A DNA stretch of 64,000 nucleotides from an uncultured Gammaproteobacteria bacterium (GTDB lineage: Bacteria > Patescibacteriota > Microgenomatia > UBA8517). The notes below the pieces were generated by a model. It was not told where the DNA came from, searched no databases, and saw only the letters and a list, made by a program, of their open reading frames with translations. Positions 9,848 to 63,015 of this stretch are shown here, one piece after another. Every line of letters starts with the position of its first letter. The stretch's first letter is position 1. The stretch spans positions 666,756 to 730,755 of the forward strand of contig CAYRUS010000001.1 in the NCBI GenBank assembly GCA_964427735.1, read 5' to 3'. The position numbers and the translations under genes were made by a program.

Positions 9848-12184
9848 ATGCCTATCGAAAGTGGAATTGATATAAATTTAATAATTTTGTTGCTGCTGGT
9901 ACTGGGATTGCTAATCCTGGTGCTTGTTGTAATTGGTGTTGTTTTGTTTACACTGTTTCGTTGGAGAGGAAGAGAGGAGCGTTCTATTGATTCAGTACTG
10001 CTTCAAATTGCTGTTCCTAAAACAAATGAAATAAAAATTGATGCAATGGAACAAATGTTTGCTTCCCTTTACTCTATCAAAAAGGGTGGATGGAAACAAA
10101 GATTTAGTGTTCAGCCAACAATAAGTTTCGAAATAGTTGCCAGAAAAGAAGATATCCGCTTTTATGTATGGACCCCAAAAAAACTTCAGGATTTAATAGA
10201 AAAACAAATTCATGGTGCTTATCCCGATGCGGAAATTTCTATGATCGATGAATACAATGTTTTCACTCAGGATGGAAAAGTGGCTTATAAATCATTGCAA
10301 TTAAGGAAACCTAACTTTTATCCGATGAAAGTTTTCAGAGAGTTACCTACAGATCCTCTTGCTGCTATCACTTCTGCACTAGCCAAAATGGGTGAAGGAG
10401 AAGCAGCAGTTTTGCAAATATTAATCTCTCCTGCTGAAAGTGATTGGCAAAAAGAAGGTAGAAGCTTCATCTCTGGAACAAAGAAAGATGAATCAAATCC
10501 AGAAAAAGCTAGTTACAAAGTACCTGCAAAAACATTGGAAGCTGTGGAGAACAAAATATCAAAACCTGGTTTTGAAACAAGCATTCGAATTGTTACTGTT
10601 GCTCCTACAAAAGATGCAGCAAGTGCACATTTGTCGAATATCTCTAGTGCTTTTGAGCAATTCTCAGGAGATTTAAATGGGTTGGGGTCAAGAAAAATAA
10701 GAAGAAAAGGTGCTTTCATGGAAGATTTTATTTATCGGTACCAGCCAATGTTCCATTTTTGGAAAAACAAAAAAACCATATTAAATTCTGAAGAATTAGC
10801 TACAATATTTCATTTTCCCAATAGGCAAATCACAACGCCTCATATTTTCTGGCTATATGCGAAGACTGCACCAGCACCAGCTGAAATACCCTCAGAAGGA
10901 CTATATATAGGTATGAGTAGATTCAGAGGTGCTCAAAAACCTGTTTATATAAGTCGCGATGATAGAAGAAGACACGTATACATAATAGGAAAAACAGGTA
11001 CAGGAAAATCAGAACTCCTTAAAGATATGATATTGCAGGATATTTATAACGGTGAGGGAGTTTGTTTTATGGATCCTCACGGTGAAGCCGTAAAGGATTT
11101 ATTGGAAATGATACCTCCGGAACGTGCAGAGGATGTGATTTATTTCAATCCTGCAGATTCCGAGCGTCCTATGGGACTTAATCTTCTAGAAGCTCAAACT
11201 GAAGAGCAGAAGCATTTTGCAGCAACAGCTGTAATAAACATGATGTACAAACTTTTTGATCCGCACAAGACAGGTATTGTAGGTCCTCGTTTCGAACACG
11301 CTGTTAGGAATGCAATGTTAACAGTAATGGCTGAACCAGGGAGTACATTTGTAGAACTTATGAGAGTCTTACAAGATCCGCGTTTTGTTCAAGAGTTATT
11401 GCCGAAGGTAGATGATCCTATTGTCAGGCGTTACTGGACTGATCAAATTGCGCAGACATCAGACTTTCATAAGTCAGAGGTTCTAGATTACATTACCTCT
11501 AAATTTGGTCGCTTTGTTACAAATAAAGTTATCAGAAACATAATTGGACAGTCACAGTCGTCATTTTCTTTCAGGGAAGTTATGGATAACAGAAAAATAT
11601 TGTTTGTTAACCTTTCCAAAGGAGAATTAGGTGAAGAGAACTCAAACTTTTTAGGGTTGATTTTGGTACCCAGAATATTAATGGCAGCACTTTCAAGAGA
11701 GGATATGCCAAAAGAGCAAAGGCAAGACTTTTATCTTTACGTAGACGAGTTTCAGAATTTTGCCACTCCTGATTTTTCACAAATATTATCTGAAGCCCGA
11801 AAGTATAAATTAAGCTTAACAGTAGCTAACCAGTTTATCGGACAAGTTGATGAGGAAGTTAAGAATGCAATTTTTGGAAATGTAGGGTCAATAATGACAT
11901 TTAGAGTTGGCGTTACAGATGCAAATTATTTAGCACATGAGTTTAAGCCTGTATTTACAGAAGAAGACTTATTAAATATCGATAAGTTTAATATTTATAT
12001 GAAGACAATTGTTGGTAATGAACCTGTTCCACCTTTTTCTGTTGATTTAACTAAAGACATGAGTAAACAAGAATCTTTGTCCAATAAACGTGTAGCTGAG
12101 ATAATCAAAGAGATGAGTAGACTTAAGTATGGACGAGATAAAAGATTGGTAGAAACCGAGCTATCAAGAAGAGCAAAACTTTAA
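9848..12184 (+). CDS. Membrane-anchored P-loop ATPase of the HerA/FtsK/VirD4 (type IV coupling protein-like) superfamily
   Basis: Two N-terminal TM helices; Walker A YIIGKTGTGKSE; DPHGE motif (CFMDPHGEAV) resembling the VirD4/TraG DPKGE motif; Walker B LYVDEFQNF; 778 aa. Confidence 0.6.
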   Translation: MPIESGIDINLIILLLLVLGLLILVLVVIGVVLFTLFRWRGREERSIDSVLLQIAVPKTNEIKIDAMEQMFASLYSIKKGGWKQRFSVQPTISFEIVARKEDIRFYVWTPKKLQDLIEKQIHGAYPDAEISMIDEYNVFTQDGKVAYKSLQLRKPNFYPMKVFRELPTDPLAAITSALAKMGEGEAAVLQILISPAESDWQKEGRSFISGTKKDESNPEKASYKVPAKTLEAVENKISKPGFETSIRIVTVAPTKDAASAHLSNISSAFEQFSGDLNGLGSRKIRRKGAFMEDFIYRYQPMFHFWKNKKTILNSEELATIFHFPNRQITTPHIFWLYAKTAPAPAEIPSEGLYIGMSRFRGAQKPVYISRDDRRRHVYIIGKTGTGKSELLKDMILQDIYNGEGVCFMDPHGEAVKDLLEMIPPERAEDVIYFNPADSERPMGLNLLEAQTEEQKHFAATAVINMMYKLFDPHKTGIVGPRFEHAVRNAMLTVMAEPGSTFVELMRVLQDPRFVQELLPKVDDPIVRRYWTDQIAQTSDFHKSEVLDYITSKFGRFVTNKVIRNIIGQSQSSFSFREVMDNRKILFVNLSKGELGEENSNFLGLILVPRILMAALSREDMPKEQRQDFYLYVDEFQNFATPDFSQILSEARKYKLSLTVANQFIGQVDEEVKNAIFGNVGSIMTFRVGVTDANYLAHEFKPVFTEEDLLNIDKFNIYMKTIVGNEPVPPFSVDLTKDMSKQESLSNKRVAEIIKEMSRLKYGRDKRLVETELSRRAKL

Positions 12185-12219
12185 ATTGAATAATTTAGGT
12201 GATATAATTTAGCCTTAAA

Positions 12220-12292
12220 GGGCCGGTAACTCAGTGGTTAGAGTGCCAATCTTATAAGTTGGAAGTCGATGGTTCGAATCCATCCCGGCCCA
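12220..12292 (+). tRNA. tRNA-Ile, anticodon UAU (reads AUA)
   Basis: Hand-folded cloverleaf: acceptor GGGCCGG/CCGGCCC, D stem ACTC/GAGT, anticodon stem CCAAT/GTTGG with loop CTTATAA (TAT at 34-36), T stem GATGG/CCATC, discriminator A. 73 nt. Confidence 0.7.
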
Positions 12293-12376
12293 CTCAAATA
12301 CTTTTTAATTTACATTAATAAGTCGTGTAGGTGGCAACTAGTGACAGGAGAATATAGATAAGTACTTTGCTGAAAC

Positions 12377-13003
12377 TTAACCATCACTTTCAAGTAGTCC
12401 TACTAAATCTTTGTGAACTTTTCCATTGGAAATAACTGCACCATTTATATCGCCATCATATCGCTGTTCATTTCAAAACAAGTAAGTCACTTTTCCTCCA
12501 GCCTCTTCAACGATAACTTTAACTGAGACCATATCCACTGCCTTTCCCTTCGTACCAGCAAAAACACAAGTATCATATTGTCCAGATGCCACTAAACAAT
12601 AAGCATTGATAACACAACCAAGATGAAGAACATAGCAATTTGATTTCATGGAAAGATTATGCAAAGGCGGATCAATGTCGTACTTTGCTTCTGACCACCA
12701 TTCAAAGTTAATAACAGAATGTCTAGTCAATGTGTTTTTACTTTTAATGGTTGGTCATTGAGGAAGGCTCTTTCGCCTTTTATTGCTGTATAAAGTCGCT
12801 TCGTAAAAGGGTCATAAACTACTCCGAGAAGAGGTTGACCATCTTTCTTCTTTAATTACCAACTCATTTATCTCCTCGTCTGCAGTGGTAACAATTGTTA
12901 AGGTTTCCTTCTCTCTATACTGCGTTTCGGTATGAAAGTGATTGAGCATGATTCATCCTGCCCGCAGTGCAACTTCTTTTGCAAAATTAAGATCATCATT
13001 CAT
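12377..13003 (-). pseudogene. Inositol monophosphatase (SuhB/IMPase) family pseudogene: in-frame stop and frameshifts plus internal deletion of the metal-binding core
   Basis: Minus-strand fragments in different frames: MNDDLNFAKEVALRAG*, EIMLNHFHTETQYREKETLTIVTTADEEINELVIKEE, KDGQPLLGVVYDPFTKRLYTAIKGERAFLNDQPLKVKT*, ...DTCVFAGTKGKAVDMVSVKVIVEEAGGKVT, ...NGKVHKDLVGLLESDG*. These are collinear with IMPase family motifs (WD.AAG..IV.EAGG). The segment between the N-terminal and 'DGQPLLGVVY' regions, which should carry the DPIDGT metal site, is missing. Confidence 0.6.
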
Positions 13004-48657: not shown

Positions 48658-49041
48658 TCAAGATGCTTTGTCAGCTGTATAAGTTATGTTTACTAATCTC
48701 ATTAAAATCCACGCTAGTAGTGCATAGAAAAACATAGCAACTAGTACAGACCATTCAATAACCGATCCTTCAACTGCAGTGTTGCCAAATACGAACCTAA
48801 AGGGAGCCATAAGAACGTTAGTAATTGTATAGACTCCGTTTACAATCCCGGCGGCTGGATTCGCTCCAGTCATTCTAAATAAAAATCTTAATAAAAGAAG
48901 TGACTCAATTATTCCAAATACAAGGTATATCCCTTGATCTATTGCAGAATAACTCGCTACTTTATTATCATCATGTGCACTTGTTGTATCAACCATTTCG
49001 GTTCTTGAAACTTTTCTATAAGCCATCTCTCTCACCTCCAA
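48658..49041 (-). CDS. Small integral membrane protein (YggT-like?)
   Basis: 127 aa with two TM helices. Last gene before the compositionally distinct island. Confidence 0.3.
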   Translation of the reverse strand: MEVREMAYRKVSRTEMVDTTSAHDDNKVASYSAIDQGIYLVFGIIESLLLLRFLFRMTGANPAAGIVNGVYTITNVLMAPFRFVFGNTAVEGSVIEWSVLVAMFFYALLAWILMRLVNITYTADKAS

Positions 49042-49238
49042 TCATTAATTTGATGATACATAGTGATTGATTAATATTAGATGAAAGAGTTGAAAGAATT
49101 AGTTAAGTATGGAGTTGAGCTGTGGCTTGTAGACGCAGTTCGAAAATTTTATCTCAATTCAAATACACCTATTCAGCCAGCATATCAGCTTAGCTATTAG
49201 TGATTTCCATCATTGGTGATTAAAGTGCAGTTCCATAA

Positions 49239-49320: not shown

Positions 49321-49376
49321 CATCCCTATACTAATCCATTTCCATCATTGATGAGCGAAATACACTCCAGGAAACC

Positions 49377-50246
49377 TTACAAGGTAGACTCGTATGAATC
49401 TTTTATCAGTGAGAATACATAATCGGTATCAGTGTCTGGCTCAAATCTAGCAAGTCCAAGGTAGCCCCACTCATTGCTGGTGATGTCTTTAACCAACTTC
49501 TTGCTATCATTTGGATAAGATCTATCTCTGAGCAACACCTTGATGTAATTTGTGTAAAATTCAAACCTCACAAAGCTTTTTGTGGTCTTGTAAGTAATTC
49601 CGCTTTTTTGAGCTGCTTTTTCCTCCACATCTGGCAACTGTAAAATTTGTTCTCTCAAGGTCTTATATTTCTTTTGCATCACATCGCTTGTTTTGTTCAT
49701 ATGGAATTCCAAACTATATTCAGTTGTATCAACCAAGTCAGCGACTTTTCTTGGTTTTAGTGTTGGCGGTGTATAGATGCTTTCCAAATGAAGAATATCA
49801 GGCTGATAATAGTGATAGGACAATAATTCTATGTTACTCTCTTGCTCAACTGCGCCTAAGATGTATCTTCCAAAACCTCTGGCGACTAGTACAACTCTTG
49901 GTAGCTCCCAGTTAACTTTGATTCCTTTACCTAGTCTATTTTCAACAAGTAGTTCAAAATGCTTCTTGTTCTTGATGAGCCAGTTGTAATAAAAGAGTCC
50001 TTGAGCAAGCACTTCTTCGTTTTCTTTCCATTTGTATTCCAATATAACTGGTGAGTTGTTCTCATCTAATCCAAGAGTGTCAATTCTGCCATCATGTATT
50101 GGATATTCTTTCTCAATAAACCTGATACCTAATAAGTCCTCAAGGTTTGCAGCAAAGAAATCTCTTAAAGAAAACTCATCGCCAAAGCCATCATCTTTGA
50201 TTGAGCATTTAATAACTTTATTATTATCTATCTTAAATATAGCCAT
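49377..50246 (-). CDS. PD-(D/E)xK nuclease-fold protein (NucS/DUF91-like N-terminal domain, DUF4268-like C-terminal half); last gene of the hsd operon
   Basis: D...ExK motif GRIDTLGLDENNSPVILEYKWKE. Probable start at the second Met (MAIFKI, 50246), overlapping the hsdR stop (50248-50250). Confidence 0.45.
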   Translation of the reverse strand: MAIFKIDNNKVIKCSIKDDGFGDEFSLRDFFAANLEDLLGIRFIEKEYPIHDGRIDTLGLDENNSPVILEYKWKENEEVLAQGLFYYNWLIKNKKHFELLVENRLGKGIKVNWELPRVVLVARGFGRYILGAVEQESNIELLSYHYYQPDILHLESIYTPPTLKPRKVADLVDTTEYSLEFHMNKTSDVMQKKYKTLREQILQLPDVEEKAAQKSGITYKTTKSFVRFEFYTNYIKVLLRDRSYPNDSKKLVKDITSNEWGYLGLARFEPDTDTDYVFSLIKDSYESTL

Positions 50247-50247
50247 T

Positions 50248-53200
50248 TTACTTTTCTCCAGTCCAATCTTTTGCCAATAATTCAGCTTGCTCAAGTACTA
50301 TTTTGGTTGCACTTTCTTGCTTGTCTGGTGGATATTTGTATTTTTTCAATAGTCGTTTGATATAGACTCTTAGTTTTGCCTGAACGCTTTCTTTAATAGT
50401 CCAGTCAATGGTGGTGTTCTTTCGAAGCATGTCCACCAGTTCTCGTGCCATTGCTTTGAGTGTCTCATCTCCAAGCTCGCGGACAGCACTTTCATTGTTT
50501 GCCAGTGCATCATAAAAAGCTACTTCTTCATCGCTAAGACCTAGATCGTGTCCTTTTTCTTTCTCCAGTTTTATTTTCTTGGCAAGTTCCAGAAGCTCTG
50601 CAATAACTTGTGCCGCCTCAATGGTTCTGTTTTGGTATTTTCGTATTGTCTCTTCAAGCATTTCAGCAAATGAGCGAGACTTTACCAGGTTTTGTTTGGT
50701 CATCGTTCGCAACTCATCATTTAGAAGTTTTTTCAATAGTTCTAGTGCAACATTTTTGTGCTCCATATTCTTAACTTCTGCCAAAAATTCTTCAGAGAAT
50801 ATAGAAATGTCAGGCGATTTGATACCAGCTGCAGAATAGATGTCGATAACCGCATCAGAAGTCACCGCAGAAGAAACAATCTGGCGTATTGCCAAGTCAT
50901 AATCATCGTCAGTTGGTCCACCTCCGTGAGGCTCCATCTTCAGAATAGCACCTCTAATAATTTGGAAGAATGCAACTTCATCACGAATCCTGATTGCTTC
51001 ATCGTGTGGTACAGCCAAAGAAAATGCCTTAGATAGCTCTGAAACCGCCTGTAGGAAGCGTTTTTTACCTTCATTGATGCCTAGCACAAAGTCAGTGGCT
51101 GCAGAGATGGTTTGAGTACGCTGGCCTGGTGTTCCATCAAAGTAATTCTGGTAGTCAAAACCATGAAATAGAGCCTTTACTACCTCATATTTCTCAAGCA
51201 TGACTGATACTGCTTGATCTTGTGGAATGGCCGTTTCCTGGCGGTCTGATTCTGAGTAATAAGAAAGTGCTTCCTTAAGCTCAGGTGCAATGCCAATATA
51301 GTCCACAATAAGTCCACCTTGCTTGTCTTTGTAGACTCGATTGACACGAGCAATAGCTTGCATCAGTCCATGGCCTTTCATTGGTTTATCAACATACATG
51401 GTGTGAAGTGAAGGTACATCAAAACCAGTCAGCCACATATCACGGACAATAACCAACTTCAGTTCATCGTCTGGATCTTTCATTCTTCTGGCTACTTCGT
51501 CCAGCATATGCTTTGGTCTTATATGAGGCTGGAAATTGAGTGGATCAGCAGCACTTCCAGTCATGACAACTTTTAAAAATCCTTTCTTGTCATCATCGCT
51601 ATGCCAATGAGGTCTTAATTTGATAAGTTCGTTATACAGCTCAACCGCAATTCTTCTGCTCATAGCTACTATCATGCCTTTGCCATCCATTACATCCAGA
51701 CGATTTTCAAAATGTTCTACCAAGTCTTTTGCCACCAGCGCAATTCTTTTCTCAGAACCAACCATAGCTTCAAGCCGCGCCCACTTGCTCTTGAGCTTTT
51801 CTTTTCGCTCTGTTTCTTCACCTTCTGTCAGCTCTTCAAATTCAGGATCAATCTTTGGCTGTTCCTCTTTCTTTAGCTCAATTCGTGCCAGCCTTGCTTC
51901 ATAATAGATCGGCACTGTAGCATGATCCTCAACAGCTCTAGTGACATCGTAGACATCCACATACTCGCCAAATACTGCTCTGGTGTTTCTATCAGTAAGT
52001 TCAACTGGAGTACCTGTAAAGCCAATAAATGAAGCGTTTGGCAGTGCATCGCGCATATGCTTGGCAAAGCCTGAAATAAATTCATATTGGCTTCTGTGAG
52101 CTTCATCCGCAATAACTACAATGTTTTTCCTGTCAGACAACATTGGATAAGACTCACTAGAGTTAACTGGCAAGAACTTCTGGATAGTGGTAAATATCAC
52201 ACCACCTGATGCGACCTTCAATAACTCCTGCAGTTCATGTCTGTCAGAAGCCTGTTTTGGTGTTTGCCGCAAGAGGTCAGCGCACTTGGAAAAAGTGCCA
52301 AATAACTGATTGTCCAAGTCATTTCTGTCAGTCAATACAACAAGAGTAGGATTGTTGAGCTCTTGGATCACTTTGCCTGCAAAAAATGTCATTGTCAGAC
52401 TCTTGCCAGATCCTTGCGTATGCCAGACTACACCGGCTCTTCTGTCTCCTTCTTCTTGTGTTGCCTTAATAGTACTTTCAACTGCTTTATTGGTGGCAAA
52501 GTATTGATGATATGCAGCAGCTTTTTTTATAGTCTTTTCTCCGTCAGTCTCAAAGACGATAAAGTTTGAGATAAGGTCTAAGAGTCTGTTCTTGTCGAAT
52601 ATACCTTTCAAGAGTACTTCCAGCTGTGGCAGAGCATTTGGTGCTAACTCTTCACCGTCTACTGTTCGCCACCTGGTAAACCATTCCAAATTGGCAGAGA
52701 GTGTGCCGACTCTGGCATCAGTTCCATCACTGATGATGGAAAGTTCGTTATAGGCAAAAAGTGTTGGAATGTCTTGCTTGTAAGTCTGGATTTGATTAAA
52801 GGCACCTTTGACGGTCGCTTTTTCATCTCCAGGATTTTTGAGTTCTATCACCACCAACGGTAAACCATTTACAAAGACGATAACATCAGGCCTTCTGTTG
52901 ATATTATTCTCAATGACAGTGAATTGATTGACCGCCACAAAGTCATTTTCAGAAGCGTTATTCAGGTCTACCAGTCTCACCTTATCACCAGCCACACTTC
53001 CATCACTTCTCATGTATTCCACATCCACGCCATCACGAAGGTATGAGTGAAATATCTTGTTGTTGAGTACCAAGCTTGGAGTAACAAATGCTACTTGCAA
53101 TGCTTTCTTGAAAGCTTCTTCTTTGGCATCGGCTGGAATATCAGGATTGAATTTCTCAATTGCTTTCCAAAGTCTTTCTTCCAGAACTACATCGGCATAC

Positions 53201-53328
53201 GACTTACGTTCTGGATTTTCTCCATCAGGAGGTGGTGCAATCTCAGGACCACCAACCACAGAATAACCAAGCTCCTCAAGCCATTCCAATGTTGCTAGTT
53301 CTAAATCTGTTTCTGTGTATTTAGTCAT
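50248..53328 (-). CDS. hsdR: Type I restriction enzyme R subunit (HsdR)
   Basis: N-terminal [22 protein letters not shown], Walker [14 protein letters not shown] box [12 protein letters not shown], helicase C-terminal motifs; about 1025 aa. ORF track start is 53352; the MTKY start at 53328 is more likely. Confidence 0.9.
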
Positions 53329-54490
53329 GATTAGCTTTCTTGATATCTTCAACTATAAAGGATGCTCTTTCATACAGTTCATCGTAAGTAACAATATCTA
53401 TATTTCTTGAGTCTCGCTGGAAAAGCTCGTACGTTCTTGCTTTAGTTCTTAGTTCCTCAGTATCTCCAGAGAATTGATTTGAATTTCCGATTATTAATAT
53501 GGTTTTAGGATCAACTGTCTGTTGCTTAATATGTTTACCTTCGTCATCAAAGTTTTTGCTTGCATTTGCCTCAGATTTAATTTGCCAACTAGCCTTTTGT
53601 TCTAGTATTTGTGAAACGGCATGGATTAAGTCTGATGATAAACACCAACTACCTGAACGGTTTTTGTCCTCTCCAAACAGTGGAGTGTTTGGTTTTTTAA
53701 GCTCTACTAATACAGTAAATCTATTACAGCTTAATAAAAAATCTCCAATCTCACCATCTTTTCCAGCAATATTTGTATTAGAAACATGTACCTCTTTTTG
53801 AAGTATTCCTAAAAATCGATAGTCTAGTCCGTATCCAAATATCCAAGGATTCTTTGTGAAAAAATGCTGCCATGCGATTTCTTCTCTTTTATCATTTAGT
53901 GACTCTTGTTCTTGATACTTCTCTAAATATCCGTCTTCATTTAATAATTTATAAAATACGTCAAGCTGATTTTTCCTATAACCGATGTTGGTTATATCAG
54001 TAGAGGTAACTAGTCCATTTTTTATCAATTCTTTTAAAAGCTTTTCACCTTCTTCAGTCGATAAAAGTGTAACTATCTTTTTTTTAGTTTCTTCGTTAAG
54101 AGTGAGAAAAGTTTCATCGGATAAGCCAATCCTTCTCTCGGAAATACTTTTTAGGTCCAGCTTTCTTAAAAAAGAAATAAAGCTCATCACCTTTTCGAAA
54201 GTAAACGATGAAAACGTAACTTTCTCATCAGTTTTTGTCCACTGACCTTTGGATAATCTGAATTTCTCTATAACTACTCTGTTGATGTCGTCTTTATCTT
54301 TTATGTAGCCAACAGTGACCTTTAGTTTTATTTGAGGTGATAGTTCAAATTCTTCTGTATCAGATGCATAAAAGTTAAGATACTTTCCATCACCACTACC
54401 AAAATTGCTCACGTACAATACATCAGTACTTGAGTTTCCTGCAATGTCTGCATCAGATGGTTCTGGTATTTTCCAATCGTCAAAGCTCAT
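53321..54490 (-). CDS. DUF4263 (Shedu SduA-like) PD-(D/E)xK nuclease-domain protein embedded between hsdS and hsdR
   Basis: C-terminal half [25 protein letters not shown]...[27 protein letters not shown]...[10 protein letters not shown]...[13 protein letters not shown] matches my recollection of the DUF4263/Shedu nuclease domain (D...ElK core). 389 aa, start 1 nt after the hsdS stop, stop overlapping the hsdR start. Confidence 0.45.
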
Positions 54491-54491
54491 A

Positions 54492-55772
54492 TTAATTCAC
54501 TCTTATCTTTCCACTCATAAGTCTTGGTAATAGCGAGTCTCTTAATGTCGTTAGAGTCATTATTTCGTGCATGTTTTCATCAATTTTTAATAGCAAGTGG
54601 CTTGCTGACTTTTCAAATAACTGTCTAACACTTGAATCTGGATACAACACATTAAGAATTTTTAATTCTGTTGGTCTAACTCGCTGCCTGGAACCTGTTG
54701 AGCCAGTTGATAAGCTCGAGAAGTATGTATAAAAAATGTTTTCACGAAACATAAAGTTGCTCCAAGTCCAGTCTTCTTTTTTTGGTACCACATTAATGAA
54801 TTCCGTTGAGCTTATAGATTTTTCATTCCACCTATCAGTAAAGATAGTCCAAATACGCTTTGCATTTTTTGGATTTAGTTTAGAAATGAGAATGCTATCC
54901 TGACTTATGTGCGTTTTATTGCTTTTTATCGTATTTCCTAGTTCTAGCATTGGTGAGTTATATTGGTCGAAAGAAGGAATGCTGAAATGCCAATAGTTTT
55001 GGTTTCCGTTCTTACTTGGATTAATTGATTTGGTGTTGATTTCAAATATTTGTTTGACCTTTTTAACCATCCATCCTTTTGGTATCTCGCCAAGTTCACT
55101 TTCCACCATCTCGCCGCCGCTGGATTTGTATGGCTCGCCATTTTCATTTGGAAATTCAAAATCCACAAACCACTGTTTGAATAGAGCTTTACCTATCTCC
55201 TCCAACGTCTTATTCATCCTGCGGTTTAATTCAATCTTGTCATCAAGTGAGGAGAGAATAGAAGCGATTTGTTTTTGCTCGTTTTCTGAAGGAAATGGAA
55301 TACGTGATCTTTCAAGAACATCTGGATTAAATGCTGGATATGTAGATGTAGTTGTATCAGCAATTGCTGACAAATAATTTGTGTATTCCTCTGTTGTGAG
55401 GTAATAGTACAGAAACCTTGGATTAACTTTTTTACTACTTACAACAGCGTATCCGGTAGATGCAATAAGATTAGGTTTTGTTTTAGAAACAAATGCAAAG
55501 TGCTTAAGATTTGGACGTACTGTTGATATTAAAATATCATTATCAGAAACAATCCGTTTTGCTCTGCTTGGTGCATCTTTCAAAGATAACTTTTGAGTTT
55601 CTAATATTTCGCCTTTAAGAGTGGATGATACATCTATATACTCAACCCACTCATACTTAAAATCCTTATTGACTGATGCTTCATTTACTTTTGCAACCTC
55701 TGACAACAAAGCAATATCCCAATCCTCAGGAATTTCACCAATTTCTGTTTGTTTGAATGTATTATTTGTCAT
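54492..55772 (-). CDS. hsdS: Type I restriction-modification specificity subunit (HsdS), two target-recognition domains
   Basis: Conserved central and C-terminal HsdS repeats (IPFPSENEQKQIASILSSLDDKIELNRRMNKTLEEIGKALFKQWFVDFEFP; ...LLLKIDENMHEIMTLTTLRDSLLPRLMSGKIRV) separated by two variable domains; 426 aa. Confidence 0.85.
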   Translation of the reverse strand: MTNNTFKQTEIGEIPEDWDIALLSEVAKVNEASVNKDFKYEWVEYIDVSSTLKGEILETQKLSLKDAPSRAKRIVSDNDILISTVRPNLKHFAFVSKTKPNLIASTGYAVVSSKKVNPRFLYYYLTTEEYTNYLSAIADTTTSTYPAFNPDVLERSRIPFPSENEQKQIASILSSLDDKIELNRRMNKTLEEIGKALFKQWFVDFEFPNENGEPYKSSGGEMVESELGEIPKGWMVKKVKQIFEINTKSINPSKNGNQNYWHFSIPSFDQYNSPMLELGNTIKSNKTHISQDSILISKLNPKNAKRIWTIFTDRWNEKSISSTEFINVVPKKEDWTWSNFMFRENIFYTYFSSLSTGSTGSRQRVRPTELKILNVLYPDSSVRQLFEKSASHLLLKIDENMHEIMTLTTLRDSLLPRLMSGKIRVN

Positions 55773-56403
55773 CTGTATTTTTGTTATCTCGTTTTTGTAT
55801 AGCAGCTTTTTTGCTTACAGGAATCTTGTCATAAATAGCATCAATTTCTTTTGGCTCGGTTATCATTTTTTCAGCTATAAAATTTACAAGTTTAAAAAGA
55901 GCTGATGCTGTTTCAATGTCATCCTTTATATCCAACTCTCCTGGATGTACTGACTCGTTACCAATAACACGAAGTGAGTCAAGCGACTGCTGAACTTTAG
56001 GAGGAAGTCCATTTTTCACTAGATTGGCGATATCAGTATTAAGATCTTTTCCTTTTTCACCAAGCTGAATACATAGCTTTTGAATTGCCAACCTAAGCAA
56101 AGCAGCTGATCCTCTTGGAGACCTTTGCAGAATAGAAACTGCTTCGTTATAGTCTTGAACAATATCATTGTTGAGGTCCTCATTAGGAGGCTCTATTCCT
56201 GAAAAATCTGGATATATCATCTTCTCTTCGTGCCAAATGGAGTACTGGCCACATCTTGCACAAAAACAAACTCGTGTATTTTCTAAAAAACCTCCATTTA
56301 CTGATTTAATGCCGTGCCAATTTTGATTTGAAAAAGCACTGCAGAAAGGACAGTTGAATCCTGACGCTTCAAATTCTGGTTGTGTAAATGGAATTTTTGT
56401 CAT
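55762..56403 (-). CDS. DUF4145-like protein with N-terminal Zn-ribbon (CPFC...CARC), embedded between hsdM and hsdS
   Basis: N-terminal CPFCSAF...CFCARCGQY Cys4 ribbon. C-terminal helical domain with [15 protein letters not shown]...[15 protein letters not shown] resembling the DUF4145 R..GN.aaH core often found in hsd operons. ATGA overlap with the hsdM stop. Confidence 0.5.
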
Positions 56404-57938
56404 AAATCGTAGCCAACTTTTTTTAAATTTTCTTTGATCTTTGCTTCCAGCTCTTTTGACTCTTTGAATTGTGCTGATAATTCGCTGGTGAGTTTTTCCA
56501 TTTTCTCCTCAAACACTTCGTCATCTTCCATCTCAAAATCTGTGCCAACATATCTGCCAGGAGTGAGGACATAGCTATTCTTTTCTACTTCTTCAATCTT
56601 GGCTGATTTGCAAAATCCTTTGACATCCTCGTAGTCGCCGTCTGGATTCCTCCAGTTGTGGTAGGTGTCTGCGATTTGTTTGAGTTCTTTATCTGATAAT
56701 TCACGATGGCGTCTGTCAACCATAGTGCCTAGCTTGCGAGCGTCAATAAAGAGAATCTCTTCATGTCTGTCTCGGAAGTTGTGGTCGTATCTGTCGCGAG
56801 ATACAAACCACAAAGAGGCTGGAATGCCTGTGGTGTAGAACAACTTGTCTGGCAGTGCCACTATGCAGTCAACCAAGCCTTTCTTTATGAGTTCTTCTCT
56901 GATCTTGCCTTCATTGGAAGTGTTGGAAGAAAGCGCACCATTTGCCATCACAAATCCAGCAATGCCGGTAGGTGATAGATGATGGATAAAGTGCTGAATC
57001 CAAGCATAGTTGGCATTGCCTGTTGGTGGAACGCCATATTTCCAGCGGACATCATCGCGGAGTCGCTCGCCACCCCAGTCACTGACATTGAATGGAGGAT
57101 TGGCCAGAATAAAATCCGCTTTCAAGTCTTTGTGAAGATCGTTGTGGAAACTGTCAGCATCGGATTCTCCAAGATTGCCTTCTATGCCGCGAATAGCCAG
57201 ATTCATCTTTGCAAGTCTCCAAGTAGCGGCGTTGCTTTCCTGTCCATATACTGAAATGTCGCCAACATTACCGCCATGCTCCTCAACAAACTTTTCACTT
57301 TGGACAAACATACCGCCACTGCCACAACAAGGATCGTAAACACGGCCTTTGTATGGCTCTATCATTTGCACCAGAAGCTTAACTACTGATGCTGGCGTGT
57401 AGTATTCACCACCTGCTTTGCCTTCTGCGCTGGCAAATCTGCCTATAAAATATTCATAGACACGACCTAAAATATCTTTTGATTTTGACTCTTTATCTCC
57501 AAGACCTAGTGAGCTGAATATATCGACAATTTCACCTAAGCGCTGTTTGTTAAGGTCTGGTCTGGCAAATCTTTTTGGAAGCACTCCTTTGAGCGTTGGA
57601 TTTTCTTTCTCAATAGCTATCATTGCATCATCAATGAGCTTGCCGATTTCTGGCTTTTTGGCGTTTTCCTTTAAGTAATTCCACCTGGCATTTTCCGGCA
57701 CCCAGAATACATTCCTTGCCTTGTAAGCATCTTTGTCCTCACACTCACCATCAAATGCTTCCGGATCGTTCTTGATGGTCTGATACGCTTCTTCGAATGA
57801 ATCTGAAATGTATTTGAGAAAGATAAGACCAAGCACAACATGCTTATATTCACCTGGATCTAAGTTGCCGCGAAGCTTGTCTGCGGCTGACCATAATTTT
57901 GTTTCAAAGCCTAGATTAGCTGATGTATTATTTGCCAT
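56400..57938 (-). CDS. hsdM: Type I restriction-modification N6-adenine DNA methyltransferase subunit (HsdM)
   Basis: SAM-binding motif [13 protein letters not shown], catalytic motif [15 protein letters not shown], HsdM N-terminal domain; 512 aa. Confidence 0.9.
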
Positions 57939-57963: not shown

Positions 57964-58173
57964 TTACTTCTTATTTCTTGACAAGTAAGCTTCAATATCA
58001 CTCTTTCGATAGCGCCTGTCACCAACACCTTTTCGCGTGCCTACACGAACAGCTTTCAGCGTGCCGTTGCGGTCCCACCTACGGAGAGTCTGAATATTTA
58101 CATTTAGTATTTTTGCTGCTTCCTGTAAGGAAATAAGCTCTTCAAGCTCTGCGTTCATATAAGTTATGTCCAA
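57964..58173 (-). CDS. Small helix-turn-helix DNA-binding protein (excisionase/MerR-like HTH)
   Basis: LQEAAKILNVNIQTLRRWDRNGTLKAVRVGTRKGVGDRRYRKSDIEAY, typical of Xis-family/MerR-type HTH; 69 aa. Immediately upstream of hsdM on the same strand. Confidence 0.55.
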   Translation of the reverse strand: MDITYMNAELEELISLQEAAKILNVNIQTLRRWDRNGTLKAVRVGTRKGVGDRRYRKSDIEAYLSRNKK

Positions 58174-58501: not shown

Positions 58502-59281
58502 ATGAAAATAAAAGATAATTCTGATCTTCTGGAACTAAAGGTAAACATTGAATGCAAGAATGACATTGCTTATATGGATTGTGCTTTGCTTCTTGATAAG
58601 CCTGAGTTCTTAAGACTGCTGCCTGAATACAGAAAAAAGCATGGCATAGATGTGCTAGTGCCGTATACTAAGTTCTATGAATGGATTTCCACAAAGATGG
58701 ATGCTGACATCAAAGCAAAAGAAGATGACATCGAAAAAGGTATAACAGTCAACGATATAACAGAGCTGAACCTACCGTTTTTGGAGTTTGAAGAAGATGC
58801 AAAGTCACTCTGTAGACAATTCAAAAAGCCTGGATACTTTGTGCAGATAATTCAGTTTGCCATTGCTTGTGGTGTAGTTGGAGACATCAGCTATCAGCAT
58901 ACGCGAATTGAGGTAACTCCAACTGATCCACCGCCACCACCTGAAGAAACAGAACTACCAGAAGTAAGAATTGTTATCACTCCAATGACAACATTAAAGG
59001 ACGTACAGGAAGTCTTTGAAAAGAATGTGCCTGATATATTTGAATCTCATATGAAACTACTCAACTACTATTACAGAATGAAGAACCGCAAAGCTGGCAA
59101 CTTCAGGCGAGATCGAGAATGGTACTGGAAGAATTTAGAAGGTGAAGGATATACAGAGATTGCACTTTCAGAGGCATCACCATCAGAAAGGCTTGAGTAC
59201 AAAAAGAGTCGCAACAGATATTTGATTACTGAGTATCAAATGGTAAAACAGGCAATCCGCAGATACAAAAACCTCCTCTAG
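58502..59281 (+). CDS. Hypothetical protein (element-borne)
   Basis: 259 aa; poly-Pro stretch PTDPPPPPEE; no family recognised. Confidence 0.4.
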   Translation: MKIKDNSDLLELKVNIECKNDIAYMDCALLLDKPEFLRLLPEYRKKHGIDVLVPYTKFYEWISTKMDADIKAKEDDIEKGITVNDITELNLPFLEFEEDAKSLCRQFKKPGYFVQIIQFAIACGVVGDISYQHTRIEVTPTDPPPPPEETELPEVRIVITPMTTLKDVQEVFEKNVPDIFESHMKLLNYYYRMKNRKAGNFRRDREWYWKNLEGEGYTEIALSEASPSERLEYKKSRNRYLITEYQMVKQAIRRYKNLL

Positions 59282-59506: not shown

Positions 59507-60019
59507 ATGAAACGCAAAAACTTTACCATGATTCCAAATGCATTGCTAAGTGAATCTCAACTATCAGTTCCTGCAAGATATTTGCTTTGTGTACTGCACA
59601 AATATTCGTTTCAAAAGGATTATTGCTGGCCAGGACAAGAAACGTTAGGTAAGGATTTAGGATACTCAGCAAGGCATATAAGAAACCTATTAAATGAACT
59701 ATTAAAATCTGGAGTTGTTGTGTCCGAAAGATGTGGATGGAATCGCACAAATACTTACAAGTTGAGTAAGAATCTTCAGTCAACCAGAGTTGCCTCATCA
59801 AATGAGTCAAACGGCAAATCGTGCCAGAAACAGACTTCCGCTCATTTTGGAACTGTAATTCCAATCCATCAAGGAAATCCACTTCCAACTAAGAATACTT
59901 ATGGAAGTAGAAAAGAGAATAACGGAAGTTCAAAAGGACTAGAAAGTTTACGGCAAGCAATGGTTGATATAGGTCTTAAACCAAATAGCCAAATAAGGCT
60001 AGAAAAGGCTGACTTTTAG
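59507..60019 (+). CDS. Helix-turn-helix (HTH_36-type) protein, replication-initiator/regulator-like, element-borne
   Basis: N-terminal FTMIPNALLSESQLSVPARYLLCVLHKYSF...YCWPGQETLGKDLGYSARHIRNLLNELLKSGVV resembles the HTH_36 / replisome-organiser N-terminal domain common on plasmids and phages. Confidence 0.45.
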   Translation: MKRKNFTMIPNALLSESQLSVPARYLLCVLHKYSFQKDYCWPGQETLGKDLGYSARHIRNLLNELLKSGVVVSERCGWNRTNTYKLSKNLQSTRVASSNESNGKSCQKQTSAHFGTVIPIHQGNPLPTKNTYGSRKENNGSSKGLESLRQAMVDIGLKPNSQIRLEKADF

Positions 60020-60061: not shown

Positions 60062-61819
60062 ATGAACTTGATATACGCACAATATTCTAGAAAGTCATCT
60101 GAGTCAAAAGAGAAACAAGCTCTGTCAATTTTTGAGCAAAATGAGGAGTGCAAAAAGGCTGTTGTTCGAGACAATTTGAAAATCGCACATATCTTTGAGG
60201 AATCGAGATCTGCATACAAACCAAATAACAGGCCAGAGTTCACACAAATGATTGAACTGATAGAGGCCAAGAAAGTAAATGCTATCTTGACCTGGAAACC
60301 AGACCGACTATGCCGCAATCCAATGGAAGGCGGACACCTTCTCCAGTTGCTACAAGATGGAAAGTTACAGGAAATTCGATCGACAGATGGTGAAAAATAT
60401 ACACAGGATTCAGATCATCTTATTTTACAGATCCATTTTGGCATGGCTAACCAATATTCCAGAAACCTGAGTAAGAATGTCAAAAGAGGCAACCATTACA
60501 TATTCCACAATAAGAAAAAATGGATTGGACCAGCTAAGCCAGGATACATCAACTACTACGATGAGGCAGCCAAAGAAAAAAAGATAGGCGTGGACGAACT
60601 AAGATTTCCACTGATCCAAAATGCTATTAAGCTCATATTGTCCGGCACTCACACTCCTATGGAAGCTTTTGACGTGCTCAATAACAAATGGAAATTTAGG
60701 TCCAGAAAACGAGGTTCACTAGGTGGCAAACCACTAGCAAAGTCTGGTTGGTATCGGATTTTGACAGATAGTTATTACTATGGCTTAATGGTTCGCACTG
60801 AAGGAGAAGTGATTGGAACACACAAGCCAATGCTCACAGAAGATGAATTTGACACGCTACAGGTAATCTTAGGACGCAAAGGCAAGCCAAGAATGGCCAG
60901 GCATGAATTTGCATATAAACATGTGCTCAAATGTGGTGAATGTGGTGGTTCTGTTACTGCTGAAGAAAAAGTGCAGATAATCTGTTCATCTTGTAAATCC
61001 AAATTTCATAAAGGCAAAGTAACCAATGCTTGTCCGCACTGTAAAATGTTGATTGAGGAGATGAAAAAGCCAACAATTCTCAAATATGTGTACTACCACT
61101 GCACCAAGCGAGTCAATAAATCTTGTACTCAAGGAAGTGTAACAATAGAAAATCTTGAGAAGAGAATAAACGAAGAACTGGATAAGTTCGAATTGAGCGA
61201 AGAATTCCGCGACTGGTGCATTGACCACTTGAATGAACTCAATGAGAAAGAAGAAGTTGATATTAAAACTATCAAAGAAAACCTCGTAAATGAGATGAAT
61301 AAATGTGATAAAGCACTTGCGAAACTTACAAGGCTCAGAATTTCAAGAGAAAACGTCTCAAATAGTGCTGAAATGGAGAAATTCTATGATGATGAAGAGA
61401 AAAGACTGCTAAAAGAGCGCAAAGACATCATGAAGCAAATTGGTACAGTCGATAAGAAACAGGAGGAGTGGTATTTCCAGTCCAAGGAGACATTTAACTT
61501 TGCTTGCACTGCCAAATATCAGTTTGAGACTGGTGACGTTAGAACCAAGACGTATATTTTGTCAAAACTTGGTTCGAACCTAACAATTCTAGATCGAAGC
61601 CTCCAAATTTCAGGCGAAAGGCCATATTTCCTAATAGAGAAAGCAAAGAAGGAGATTCAAGAGGTTGTCCTGGCGTTAGAACCTGAAGAAAAGGCCATAA
61701 TATCAAGCAATTTGCTAGCTTATGAGCCTATCAGTACTATCTTGCTGCGGAGCAGGGATTCGAACCCCAAATTCCAGTTCCAAAGACTGGCGTGTTACCA
61801 TTACACCACTCCGCAATGA
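60062..61819 (+). CDS. Large serine recombinase (resolvase catalytic domain + recombinase domain + Zn-ribbon + coiled coil)
   Basis: N-terminal LIYAQYSRKSSESKEKQALSIFEQ (catalytic Ser region) and DRLCRN motif; central recombinase domain; CGECGGSV...CSSCKSK...CPHCKM zinc ribbon; C-terminal coiled coil. 585 aa. The last 25 codons read through the antisense of tRNA-Gln. Confidence 0.8.
   Translation: MNLIYAQYSRKSSESKEKQALSIFEQNEECKKAVVRDNLKIAHIFEESRSAYKPNNRPEFTQMIELIEAKKVNAILTWKPDRLCRNPMEGGHLLQLLQDGKLQEIRSTDGEKYTQDSDHLILQIHFGMANQYSRNLSKNVKRGNHYIFHNKKKWIGPAKPGYINYYDEAAKEKKIGVDELRFPLIQNAIKLILSGTHTPMEAFDVLNNKWKFRSRKRGSLGGKPLAKSGWYRILTDSYYYGLMVRTEGEVIGTHKPMLTEDEFDTLQVILGRKGKPRMARHEFAYKHVLKCGECGGSVTAEEKVQIICSSCKSKFHKGKVTNACPHCKMLIEEMKKPTILKYVYYHCTKRVNKSCTQGSVTIENLEKRINEELDKFELSEEFRDWCIDHLNELNEKEEVDIKTIKENLVNEMNKCDKALAKLTRLRISRENVSNSAEMEKFYDDEEKRLLKERKDIMKQIGTVDKKQEEWYFQSKETFNFACTAKYQFETGDVRTKTYILSKLGSNLTILDRSLQISGERPYFLIEKAKKEIQEVVLALEPEEKAIISSNLLAYEPISTILLRSRDSNPKFQFQRLACYHYTTPQ
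61745..61815 (-). tRNA. tRNA-Gln, anticodon UUG
   Basis: Minus strand TGCGGAG-TG-GTGT-AATGGTA-ACAC-G-CCAGT-CTTTGGA-ACTGG-AATT-TGGGG-TTCGAAT-CCCTG-CTCCGCA-G; U8 present; anticodon TTG. Confidence 0.7.
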
Positions 61820-62839: not shown

Positions 62840-62915
62840 GTGACTCCGGAAGGACTCGAACCTTCAACCATCAGCTTAAAAAGTCCGCCAGTTGGCGGAT
62901 CTGCCATTGAGACTT
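62840..62915 (-). other. Degenerate tRNA-Lys copy (pseudo-tRNA): exact 41-nt duplicate of the tRNA-Lys 3' half plus D-loop-like remnant, anticodon stem replaced by a CCGCCAACTGGCGG palindrome
   Basis: Plus strand TGACTCCGGAAGGACTCGAACCTTCAACCATCAGCTTAAAA occurs at 62840-62880 and again at 62944-62984. The upstream copy lacks a 5' acceptor strand able to pair with CGGAGTC. Confidence 0.6.
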
Positions 62916-62940: not shown

Positions 62941-63015
62941 TGGTGACTCCGGAAGGACTCGAACCTTCAACCATCAGCTTAAAAGGCTGTTGCTCTGCCA
63001 TTGAGCTACGGAGCC
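62941..63015 (-). tRNA. tRNA-Lys, anticodon UUU, CCA encoded
   Basis: Minus strand GGCTCCG-TA-GCTC-AATGGCA-GAGC-A-ACAGC-CTTTTAA-GCTGA-TGGTT-GAAGG-TTCGAGT-CCTTC-CGGAGTC-A-CCA. Confidence 0.7.

Follow-up and report, generated by a model that had tools for sequence, protein, structure and literature searches.

In a 64,000-nucleotide (nt) stretch of contig CAYRUS010000001.1 from an uncultured bacterium, deposited as Gammaproteobacteria and placed by GTDB in the Patescibacteriota (the whole stretch analysed is called the window here), the gene between hsdM and hsdS of a type I restriction-modification (R-M) operon encodes a full-length homologue of RAZR, the ring-activated zinc-finger ribonuclease (RNase), in which the Cys4 ribbon, the linker and the catalytic Arg and His are kept. 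The explanation favoured here, with a probability of about 0.82, is that this protein is an autonomous abortive-infection RNase of the RAZR (PD-T7-4) family, carried as cargo of the type I R-M operon on a small integrative island. Rather than a new subunit of the restriction enzyme, the gene most probably encodes a second line of defence of its own. RNase activity, a ring-shaped trigger and an abortive outcome are ascribed to the window protein by analogy with its E. coli relative.

PD-T7-4 was obtained by functional selection from E. coli as a one-gene antiphage system, and the E. coli gene often overlaps an integrase gene (PMC9519451). It was renamed RAZR in a 2026 Nature paper, according to which the Cys4 ribbon senses ring-shaped phage proteins and the DUF4145 domain is a divergent HEPN RNase (PMC13017515). 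In the same study, 24 RAZR protomers were found around ring proteins, namely Gp77 of SECphi27 or the portals of T7, T3 and SECphi18, and the complex cleaved single-stranded RNA (ssRNA) non-specifically, halted translation and caused abortive infection. Ring assembly, ssRNA cleavage and the abortive phenotype are known for the proteins RAZR-Ec and RAZR-Kv; the zinc-finger domain (ZFD) is the variable region of RAZR and sets phage specificity, and residues R146 and H154 of RAZR-Ec are needed for defence, which is abolished by Ala substitutions (PMC13017515).

Both the list of open reading frames (ORFs) and the raw sequence gave an ORF of 213 amino acids (aa) with an ATG start at this position, with the following extents:

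55762..56403, minus strand: RAZR/PD-T7-4-family gene, 213 aa, with an N-terminal Cys4 zinc ribbon and a C-terminal DUF4145/HEPN RNase domain
56209..56403, minus strand: ZFD, aa 1-65, from the Cys alignment with RAZR-Ec and the strands of the AlphaFold2 (AF2) model
55903..56148, minus strand: DUF4145/divergent HEPN RNase core, aa 86-167 (Pfam PF13643, E=3.2e-17)

Two plus-strand ORFs, 55621..55905 and 56168..56326, were rejected as short shadows of the minus-strand RAZR gene.

The PADLOC profile for PD-T7-4 (PDLC04109) matched aa 6-209 of the protein over profile positions 4-210 of 211 (E=1.5e-85, 283.9 bits). The DUF4145 similarity claimed in the original prediction, which had been made from the sequence alone, was confirmed with the Pfam hidden Markov model, against which the core scored 62.8 bits, compared with a cutoff of 23.1. 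The accompanying statement that DUF4145 proteins have no assigned role is outdated. Pfam places DUF4145 within a HEPN-containing clan, the family was assigned to the HEPN RNase superfamily in 2013, when zinc-ribbon fusions and links to R-M operons were also listed (PMC3710099), and the architecture found here is that of PD-T7-4/RAZR (PMC9519451, PMC13017515).

A sequence search of the PDB matched a single entry, chain OA of 9y9c, the cryo-electron microscopy structure of the RAZR:Gp77 complex with 24 identical chains of 219 aa (E=2.8e-52, aa 10-208). This chain is RAZR-Ec of E. coli UMB1727, to which the window protein is 41% identical over the full length; both proteins consist of two domains and are of similar size (213 versus 219 aa), and the ribbon Cys residues, the linker and the catalytic Arg and His correspond one to one. 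The AF2 model, built with 50 homologues, had a mean predicted local distance difference test score (pLDDT) of 89.2 and comprised a beta ribbon at aa 15-64 (strands 15-17, 24-33, 39-48, 54-58 and 61-64; ribbon pLDDT approximately 88-94) followed by six helices. Foldseek with this model returned 9y9c_OA as the top and sole significant match (probability 1.0, E=3.4e-10, 41% identity). The TM-scores to 9y9c were low (0.38 and 0.44), most likely reflecting a different inter-domain angle in the monomer model. The next Foldseek neighbours were the HEPN toxins 7ae6, 7ae8 and 7ae9, which matched weakly (E 0.14-0.8, probability up to 0.92). The MNT-HEPN toxins (7ae6/7ae8) and HepS (9oij) resemble the window protein in their helical HEPN-like fold and R...H site and are weak structural neighbours of it (probability 0.5-0.9), but their identity is 15-22% with E >0.1, no antitoxin partner is present at the window locus, and the R-H spacing of the window protein is seven residues.

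Residue conservation was evaluated in two alignments. The first (n=122) contained 120 database proteins of at least 63% identity, including an exact match to the window protein, together with the window ORF and the RAZR-Ec chain. The second (n=82) contained the window protein, homologues from 80 genome loci and E. coli RAZR, and spanned Patescibacteria, Bacteroidota, Planctomycetota, Proteobacteria, Chloroflexota, one archaeal metagenome-assembled genome (MAG) and others. The four ribbon Cys residues of the CPFC and CARC motifs, whose codons were read on the raw sequence as C18 (56350-56352), C21 (56341-56343), C48 (56260-56262) and C51 (56251-56253), are 100% conserved in both alignments and correspond to C16, C19, C49 and C52 of RAZR-Ec. 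The proposed N-terminal Cys4 ribbon is therefore a conserved feature; its description as an extra carried by this copy did not hold, the ribbon being the family-defining sensor domain found in 82 of 82 sequences.

The putative catalytic residues R145 (55969-55971) and H153 (55945-55947), within the motif RVIGNESVH, align with R146 and H154 of RAZR-Ec. R145, N149 and H153 do not vary among the 82 sequences. The linker between ZFD and HEPN domain (RAZR-Ec residues 66-79) aligns without gaps, and its residues P65, E71, N74 and D76, common to RAZR-Ec, are at least 94% conserved in the first alignment. P5 and P9 are also conserved, and the N-terminus of the ORF is kept. The least conserved stretch of the first alignment is the hairpin at aa 28-45 within the ZFD, matching the report for RAZR, and this variable hairpin is predicted to be the trigger-recognition surface. 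The RAZR gene is under strong purifying selection, the ratio of nonsynonymous to synonymous substitution rates (dN/dS) being 0.068 for the comparison with an orthologue of 91% identity and 0.074 for that with one of 86%.

The RAZR gene belongs to a cluster of seven genes, which on the minus strand follow one another in the order HTH_17, hsdM, RAZR, hsdS, sduA, hsdR and PDC-S18. The six genes that accompany it are:

57964..58173, minus strand: small HTH_17/MerR-type gene, 69 aa, 25 nt upstream of hsdM (HTH_17 1.6e-12)
56400..57938, minus strand: hsdM, type I methyltransferase (N6_Mtase 1.4e-110, HsdM_N 1.6e-28, PADLOC MTase_I 9.4e-235)
54492..55772, minus strand: hsdS, specificity subunit (Methylase_S 3.4e-20; PADLOC Specificity_I 3.9e-82, aa 23-425)
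53321..54490, minus strand: Shedu gene sduA, between hsdS and hsdR (SduA_C 2.5e-28; PADLOC SduA 3.8e-141, full length)
50248..53352, minus strand: hsdR, restriction/translocase subunit (HSDR_N, SWI2_SNF2, T1R_D3-like and T1RH-like_C; PADLOC REase_I E=0)
49377..50294, minus strand: PDC-S18 candidate defence gene, last of the cluster (PADLOC PDC-S18 9.5e-64; weak Pfam matches to DUF5655, 1.2e-05, and NucS_C, 6.8e-05)

The type I system around the RAZR gene is complete, with strong Pfam and PADLOC matches for HsdM, HsdS and HsdR. The two overlaps given in the original prediction were read again on the sequence. The hsdM/RAZR overlap is 4 nt (ATGA), with hsdM ending in GAT TTA TGA and RAZR starting with ATG ACA; the RAZR/hsdS overlap is 11 nt, ATGACAAATAA, with RAZR ending in GAT GAC AAA TAA and hsdS starting with ATG ACA AAT AAT. 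The other junctions are a 25-nt gap between the HTH gene and hsdM, a 1-nt gap between hsdS and sduA, a 32-nt overlap between sduA and hsdR and a 47-nt overlap between hsdR and PDC-S18. The whole cluster is tightly packed, including Shedu, which PADLOC classes as a defence system of its own. Because all junctions are tight, those of the embedded Shedu as well, the overlaps provide no evidence for a stoichiometric complex of RAZR with the methyltransferase. Judged from gene spacing, all seven cluster genes are likely to form one transcript with coupled translation. A promoter and terminator scan of 49-58.6 kb returned fewer sites than shuffled sequence and was hence uninformative.

From its position, the HTH_17 gene product could be an operon regulator or repressor, like RptR of the enteropathogenic E. 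coli (EPEC) RM-DarTG2 island, where a small regulator gene also lies upstream of hsdM, or it could be an island excisionase. The starts of hsdS (55757..55772) and hsdM (57923..57938) are alike in 15 of 16 nt on the minus strand (ATGACAAATAATACAT and ATGGCAAATAATACAT, encoding MTNNT and MANNT), a likeness that is probably due to chance.

In order to place the gene among its relatives, one genome per species was scanned, which yielded 565 confirmed relatives; the best 80 loci were kept for context counts and were compared by tblastn with the window Hsd proteins, by ORF maps and by a neighbour-joining tree. Relatives of RAZR with 47-91% identity to the window protein were found in loci of many phyla, among them uncultured lineages with very small genomes. 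The nearest two loci (L002 and L003) are labelled as uncultured Pseudomonadales and Gammaproteobacteria; Patescibacteria MAGs follow. In 12 of the 80 loci (L002, L003, L005-L011, L013, L017 and L075) hsdM lies directly upstream on the same strand. Most of these 12 loci fall in one clade with the window protein, and most are Patescibacteria MAGs. At their hsdM-RAZR junctions the genes usually overlap by 4 nt or are separated by a few nt, and the overlapping hsdM-RAZR-hsdS arrangement of the window is kept in its closest orthologues, L002 and L003. In the embedded operons the frame hsdM...RAZR...hsdS...hsdR is constant while the other inserts vary:

L003:5549-6574: PIN_12 insert
L005:8970-9743 and 12156-12947: DUF3800 and AbiJ_NTD4 inserts
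L006:12325-14194: Abi_C and DUF7946 inserts
L010:8943-10004: RhuM insert
L002 (142 and 135 aa), L005 (111 aa) and L006 (140 aa): small ORFs without a Pfam match

These varied inserts and small ORFs in related type I operons may be further embedded defence genes. The order hsdM-RAZR-...-SduA-hsdR was found again in two Saccharibacteria loci (L008 and L009), in which HsdM is just 31% identical to that of the window. Across the 12 loci, HsdM is 24-95% identical to that of the window and RAZR 53-91%, indicating that RAZR has moved among distinct type I lineages.

No hsd gene adjoins the RAZR homologue in 68 of the 80 loci, and the largest common neighbour family there accounts for four loci. Four of these loci (L004, L064, L012 and L074) belong to the clade of the window protein: in L004 (68% identity) the gene follows an AAA_21/RloB pair amid housekeeping genes, and in L064 it lies between genes for a dehydrogenase and a PEP-utilising (phosphoenolpyruvate) enzyme. 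Lone homologues are also carried by mobile elements, including lysogeny modules of Streptococcus Javan prophages, plasmids of Campylobacter, Francisella and haloarchaea, and a Vibrio filamentous phage, whose record labels the gene PD-T7-4; none of the phage and plasmid copies examined had an adjacent hsdM. In two Patescibacteria loci (L012, 2198-4873, minus strand; L074, 922-2409, minus strand) the RAZR homologue is divergent from the gene of a LexA-fused DNA methyltransferase. These two methyltransferases have an unusual architecture, with a complete LexA_DNA_bind plus Peptidase_S24 module, one being of the Eco57I/TaqI_C type and the other of the N6_N4_Mtase type.

The reading of the RAZR gene as autonomous cargo agrees with an established pattern, independent defence genes in type I operons (PrrC, the Campylobacter rlo genes, TgvAB and DarTG2), and with the link between DUF4145/HEPN domains and type I restriction, zinc-ribbon fusions included, that has been noted since 2012-2013. 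DarTG2 of the EPEC RRDM island, TgvAB of V. cholerae VPI-2 and RloF of the Campylobacter rlo genes are likewise autonomous cargo between hsd genes; they sit between hsdS and hsdR, whereas in the window RAZR occupies the hsdM-hsdS slot and Shedu the hsdS-hsdR slot. The DUF4145/HEPN-HsdR and nuclease fusions described earlier (Makarova/Anantharaman 2012-2013) share the Pfam domain and the type I association with the window protein, but they are covalent fusions to the restriction endonuclease or helicase, in contrast to the stand-alone zinc-ribbon form found here.

On the model of RAZR-Ec (PMC13017515), the window protein at rest would form inactive oligomers. The variable ZFD would bind a ring-shaped phage protein made late in infection, such as a portal dodecamer, and assembly round the ring would reposition the HEPN dimers into active sites, leading to non-specific ssRNA cleavage, a stop of translation and abortion of the infection. 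In such a layered operon, the type I enzyme would first cut unmethylated incoming DNA, and RAZR, with the Shedu and PDC-S18 of the cluster, would be the back-up against phages escaping restriction. The slot after hsdM would allow the gene to be expressed without its own promoter and to travel with the restriction system.

Several observations weigh against this explanation. The identity to the characterised E. coli protein is just 41%, and the residues D179, D180, R184 and V21, which form the dimer-dimer contacts of RAZR-Ec, are replaced by E178, K179, E183 and A23 in the window protein. These positions vary family-wide, and K179 and E183 could form a charge-swapped pair; a linear-to-ring higher-order assembly of the window protein is presumed by analogy with RAZR-Ec. 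The window protein also differs from RAZR-Ec in the ZFD hairpin, and presumably in its trigger, and it comes from a low-GC uncultured host. The R145-x7-H153 spacing is outside the canonical HEPN Rx4-6H by one residue, yet it is the same as in RAZR-Ec. Furthermore, the position after hsdM recurs in loci where HsdM is only 24-32% identical to that of the window and RAZR is still 56-61% identical, and such recurrence in divergent type I systems could point to selection for a link with the methyltransferase, beyond hitch-hiking.

This last observation is the reason for considering an alternative in which the hsdM-adjacent clade, mainly of Patescibacteria-type genomes, is wired to the type I enzyme, either held by HsdM/HsdS or reading their state, and fires when restriction is neutralised. 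This alternative is proposed because RAZRs that are 56-66% identical to one another share the slot although their HsdM partners have diverged so far; the shared slot suggests that the gene was captured there repeatedly or has been retained there. It is judged unlikely, although it is the strongest of the alternatives weighed here. Residues specific to the hsdM-adjacent copies, as would mark an Hsd-binding surface, were sought in the 82-sequence alignment, and C46 alone stood out, which is too little for an interface. C46, the first Cys of CFCARC, is Cys in 11 of the 13 hsdM-adjacent sequences as opposed to 10 of the 69 without an adjacent hsdM, and it is no conserved ligand, because it is Ser in RAZR-Ec.

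A more specific form of the same idea, judged a little less probable still, is a guard like PrrC, in which the RNase is kept latent on HsdM/HsdS, possibly with HsdR, and is freed once the type I enzyme has been disabled by an anti-restriction factor of a phage; the trigger would then be the loss of R-M integrity, with no ring protein involved. The placement of the gene immediately 3' of hsdM in 12 loci with HsdM of such different identity, the very tight junctions and the fusion of DUF4145/HEPN domains to type I R subunits elsewhere are consistent with this proposal, and PrrC/EcoprrI is a known case of an RNase coupled to a type I system. As proposed for the window protein, PrrC is a suicide RNase encoded in a type I R-M operon as a second-line defence. 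Its nuclease region is HEPN-type; it carries an ABC-ATPase N-domain, is encoded between hsdS and hsdR and is masked by the R-M enzyme, with the T4 Stp peptide as its trigger. By contrast, the window protein has a zinc ribbon, no ATPase domain was found in it by Pfam or in the AF2 model, and its characterised homologue needs no R-M partner: RAZR-Ec defends from a plasmid alone and is activated in vitro by Gp77 without Hsd proteins (PMC13017515). In addition, the guard proposal is at odds with the 68 loci without hsd genes nearby, the same-clade L004 and L064 among them, with the finding that only C46 sets the hsdM-adjacent copies apart, and with the Shedu gene of the same operon, whose junctions are equally tight.

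The original prediction had suggested stoichiometric co-production with the methyltransferase complex. The corresponding explanation, an accessory subunit that is made in stoichiometric amounts with HsdM and HsdS and has a modulating effect on DNA binding, methylation or restriction, is considered very improbable. The 4-nt and 11-nt overlaps and their preservation in L002 and L003 would fit it, but co-occurrence with hsdM is not obligate (12/80 loci), relatives stand alone in L004, in phages and on plasmids, RAZR-Ec works without Hsd proteins, and canonical type I enzymes need the R, M and S subunits only. The strict conservation of the HEPN Arg and His fits an RNase rather than a structural partner. 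Moreover, RhuM, DUF3800 and small ORFs are interposed among hsdM, RAZR and hsdS in L005, L006, L010 and L013, so that there is no fixed M-RAZR-S translational unit. The least credible of all is that the gene is a decayed or inactive passenger, a remnant without current function, for which its location on a horizontally acquired island is nothing specific, and against which stand the full-length ORF, the conserved N-terminus, the intact catalytic and metal-binding residues and the dN/dS of 0.07.

The cluster occupies a stretch of approximately 12.5 kb, whose GC content is 0.39-0.42 throughout most of the 50-58 kb interval, with 0.35 for the bin at 54-56 kb, compared with 0.31-0.37 at 24-50 kb. 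Housekeeping genes resume left of 49.1 kb, where a YGGT-family gene (48658..49041) marks the left border. The features towards the right end are:

58502..59281: 259-aa ORF
59507..60019: HTH_36 gene
60062..61819, plus strand: large serine recombinase at the right island end (Resolvase 3.5e-19; XisF-like 3.7e-17)
61744..61815, minus strand: tRNA-Gln, into which the serine recombinase ORF reads on the opposite strand

The HTH_36 gene, the 259-aa ORF and the serine recombinase look like an integration module, and the operon is probably located on an integrated island. A repeat of the tRNA-Gln 3' end was sought as the second island boundary and none was found, even at 3 mismatches, as is expected for a serine recombinase.

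Other repeats and tRNA genes were observed in the window. Two 17-nt direct repeats, ATTTCCATCATTGGTGA at 49203..49219 and ATTTCCATCATTGATGA at 49338..49354, lie 135 nt apart in the intergenic region at the left island edge, downstream of the final gene of the cluster. Part of a tRNA-Lys (62941..63015, minus strand) is duplicated by a perfect direct repeat of 42 nt (62840..62881 and 62943..62984; copies 103 nt apart), which looks like an att-type scar of past integration or excision. At 12220..12293 the plus strand encodes a tRNA-Ile of a kind uncommon in bacteria, with the anticodon UAU, and a gene for a VirD4/TraD-like coupling protein lies just upstream (9848..12184).

The text of the RAZR study (PMC13017515) does not mention restriction-modification, and the hsdM-hsdS slot and small-genome uncultured hosts are not discussed there. 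The occurrence of relatives across many phyla and the repeated presence of one clade in the hsdM-hsdS slot go beyond that published work, yet they are consistent with the earlier comparative-genomic notes. In conclusion, a gene of a restriction locus whose product would be annotated as a DUF4145 protein without a known role can be interpreted as coding for an abortive-infection RNase of the RAZR type, and the locus as a four-layer defence island (type I R-M, RAZR, Shedu and PDC-S18) on a serine-recombinase element. If the hsdM-adjacent clade were indeed wired to the type I enzyme, it would represent a guard of the PrrC kind on a RAZR scaffold. The embedded clade provides a natural test case of whether abortive-infection genes merely co-travel with restriction or also cooperate with it.

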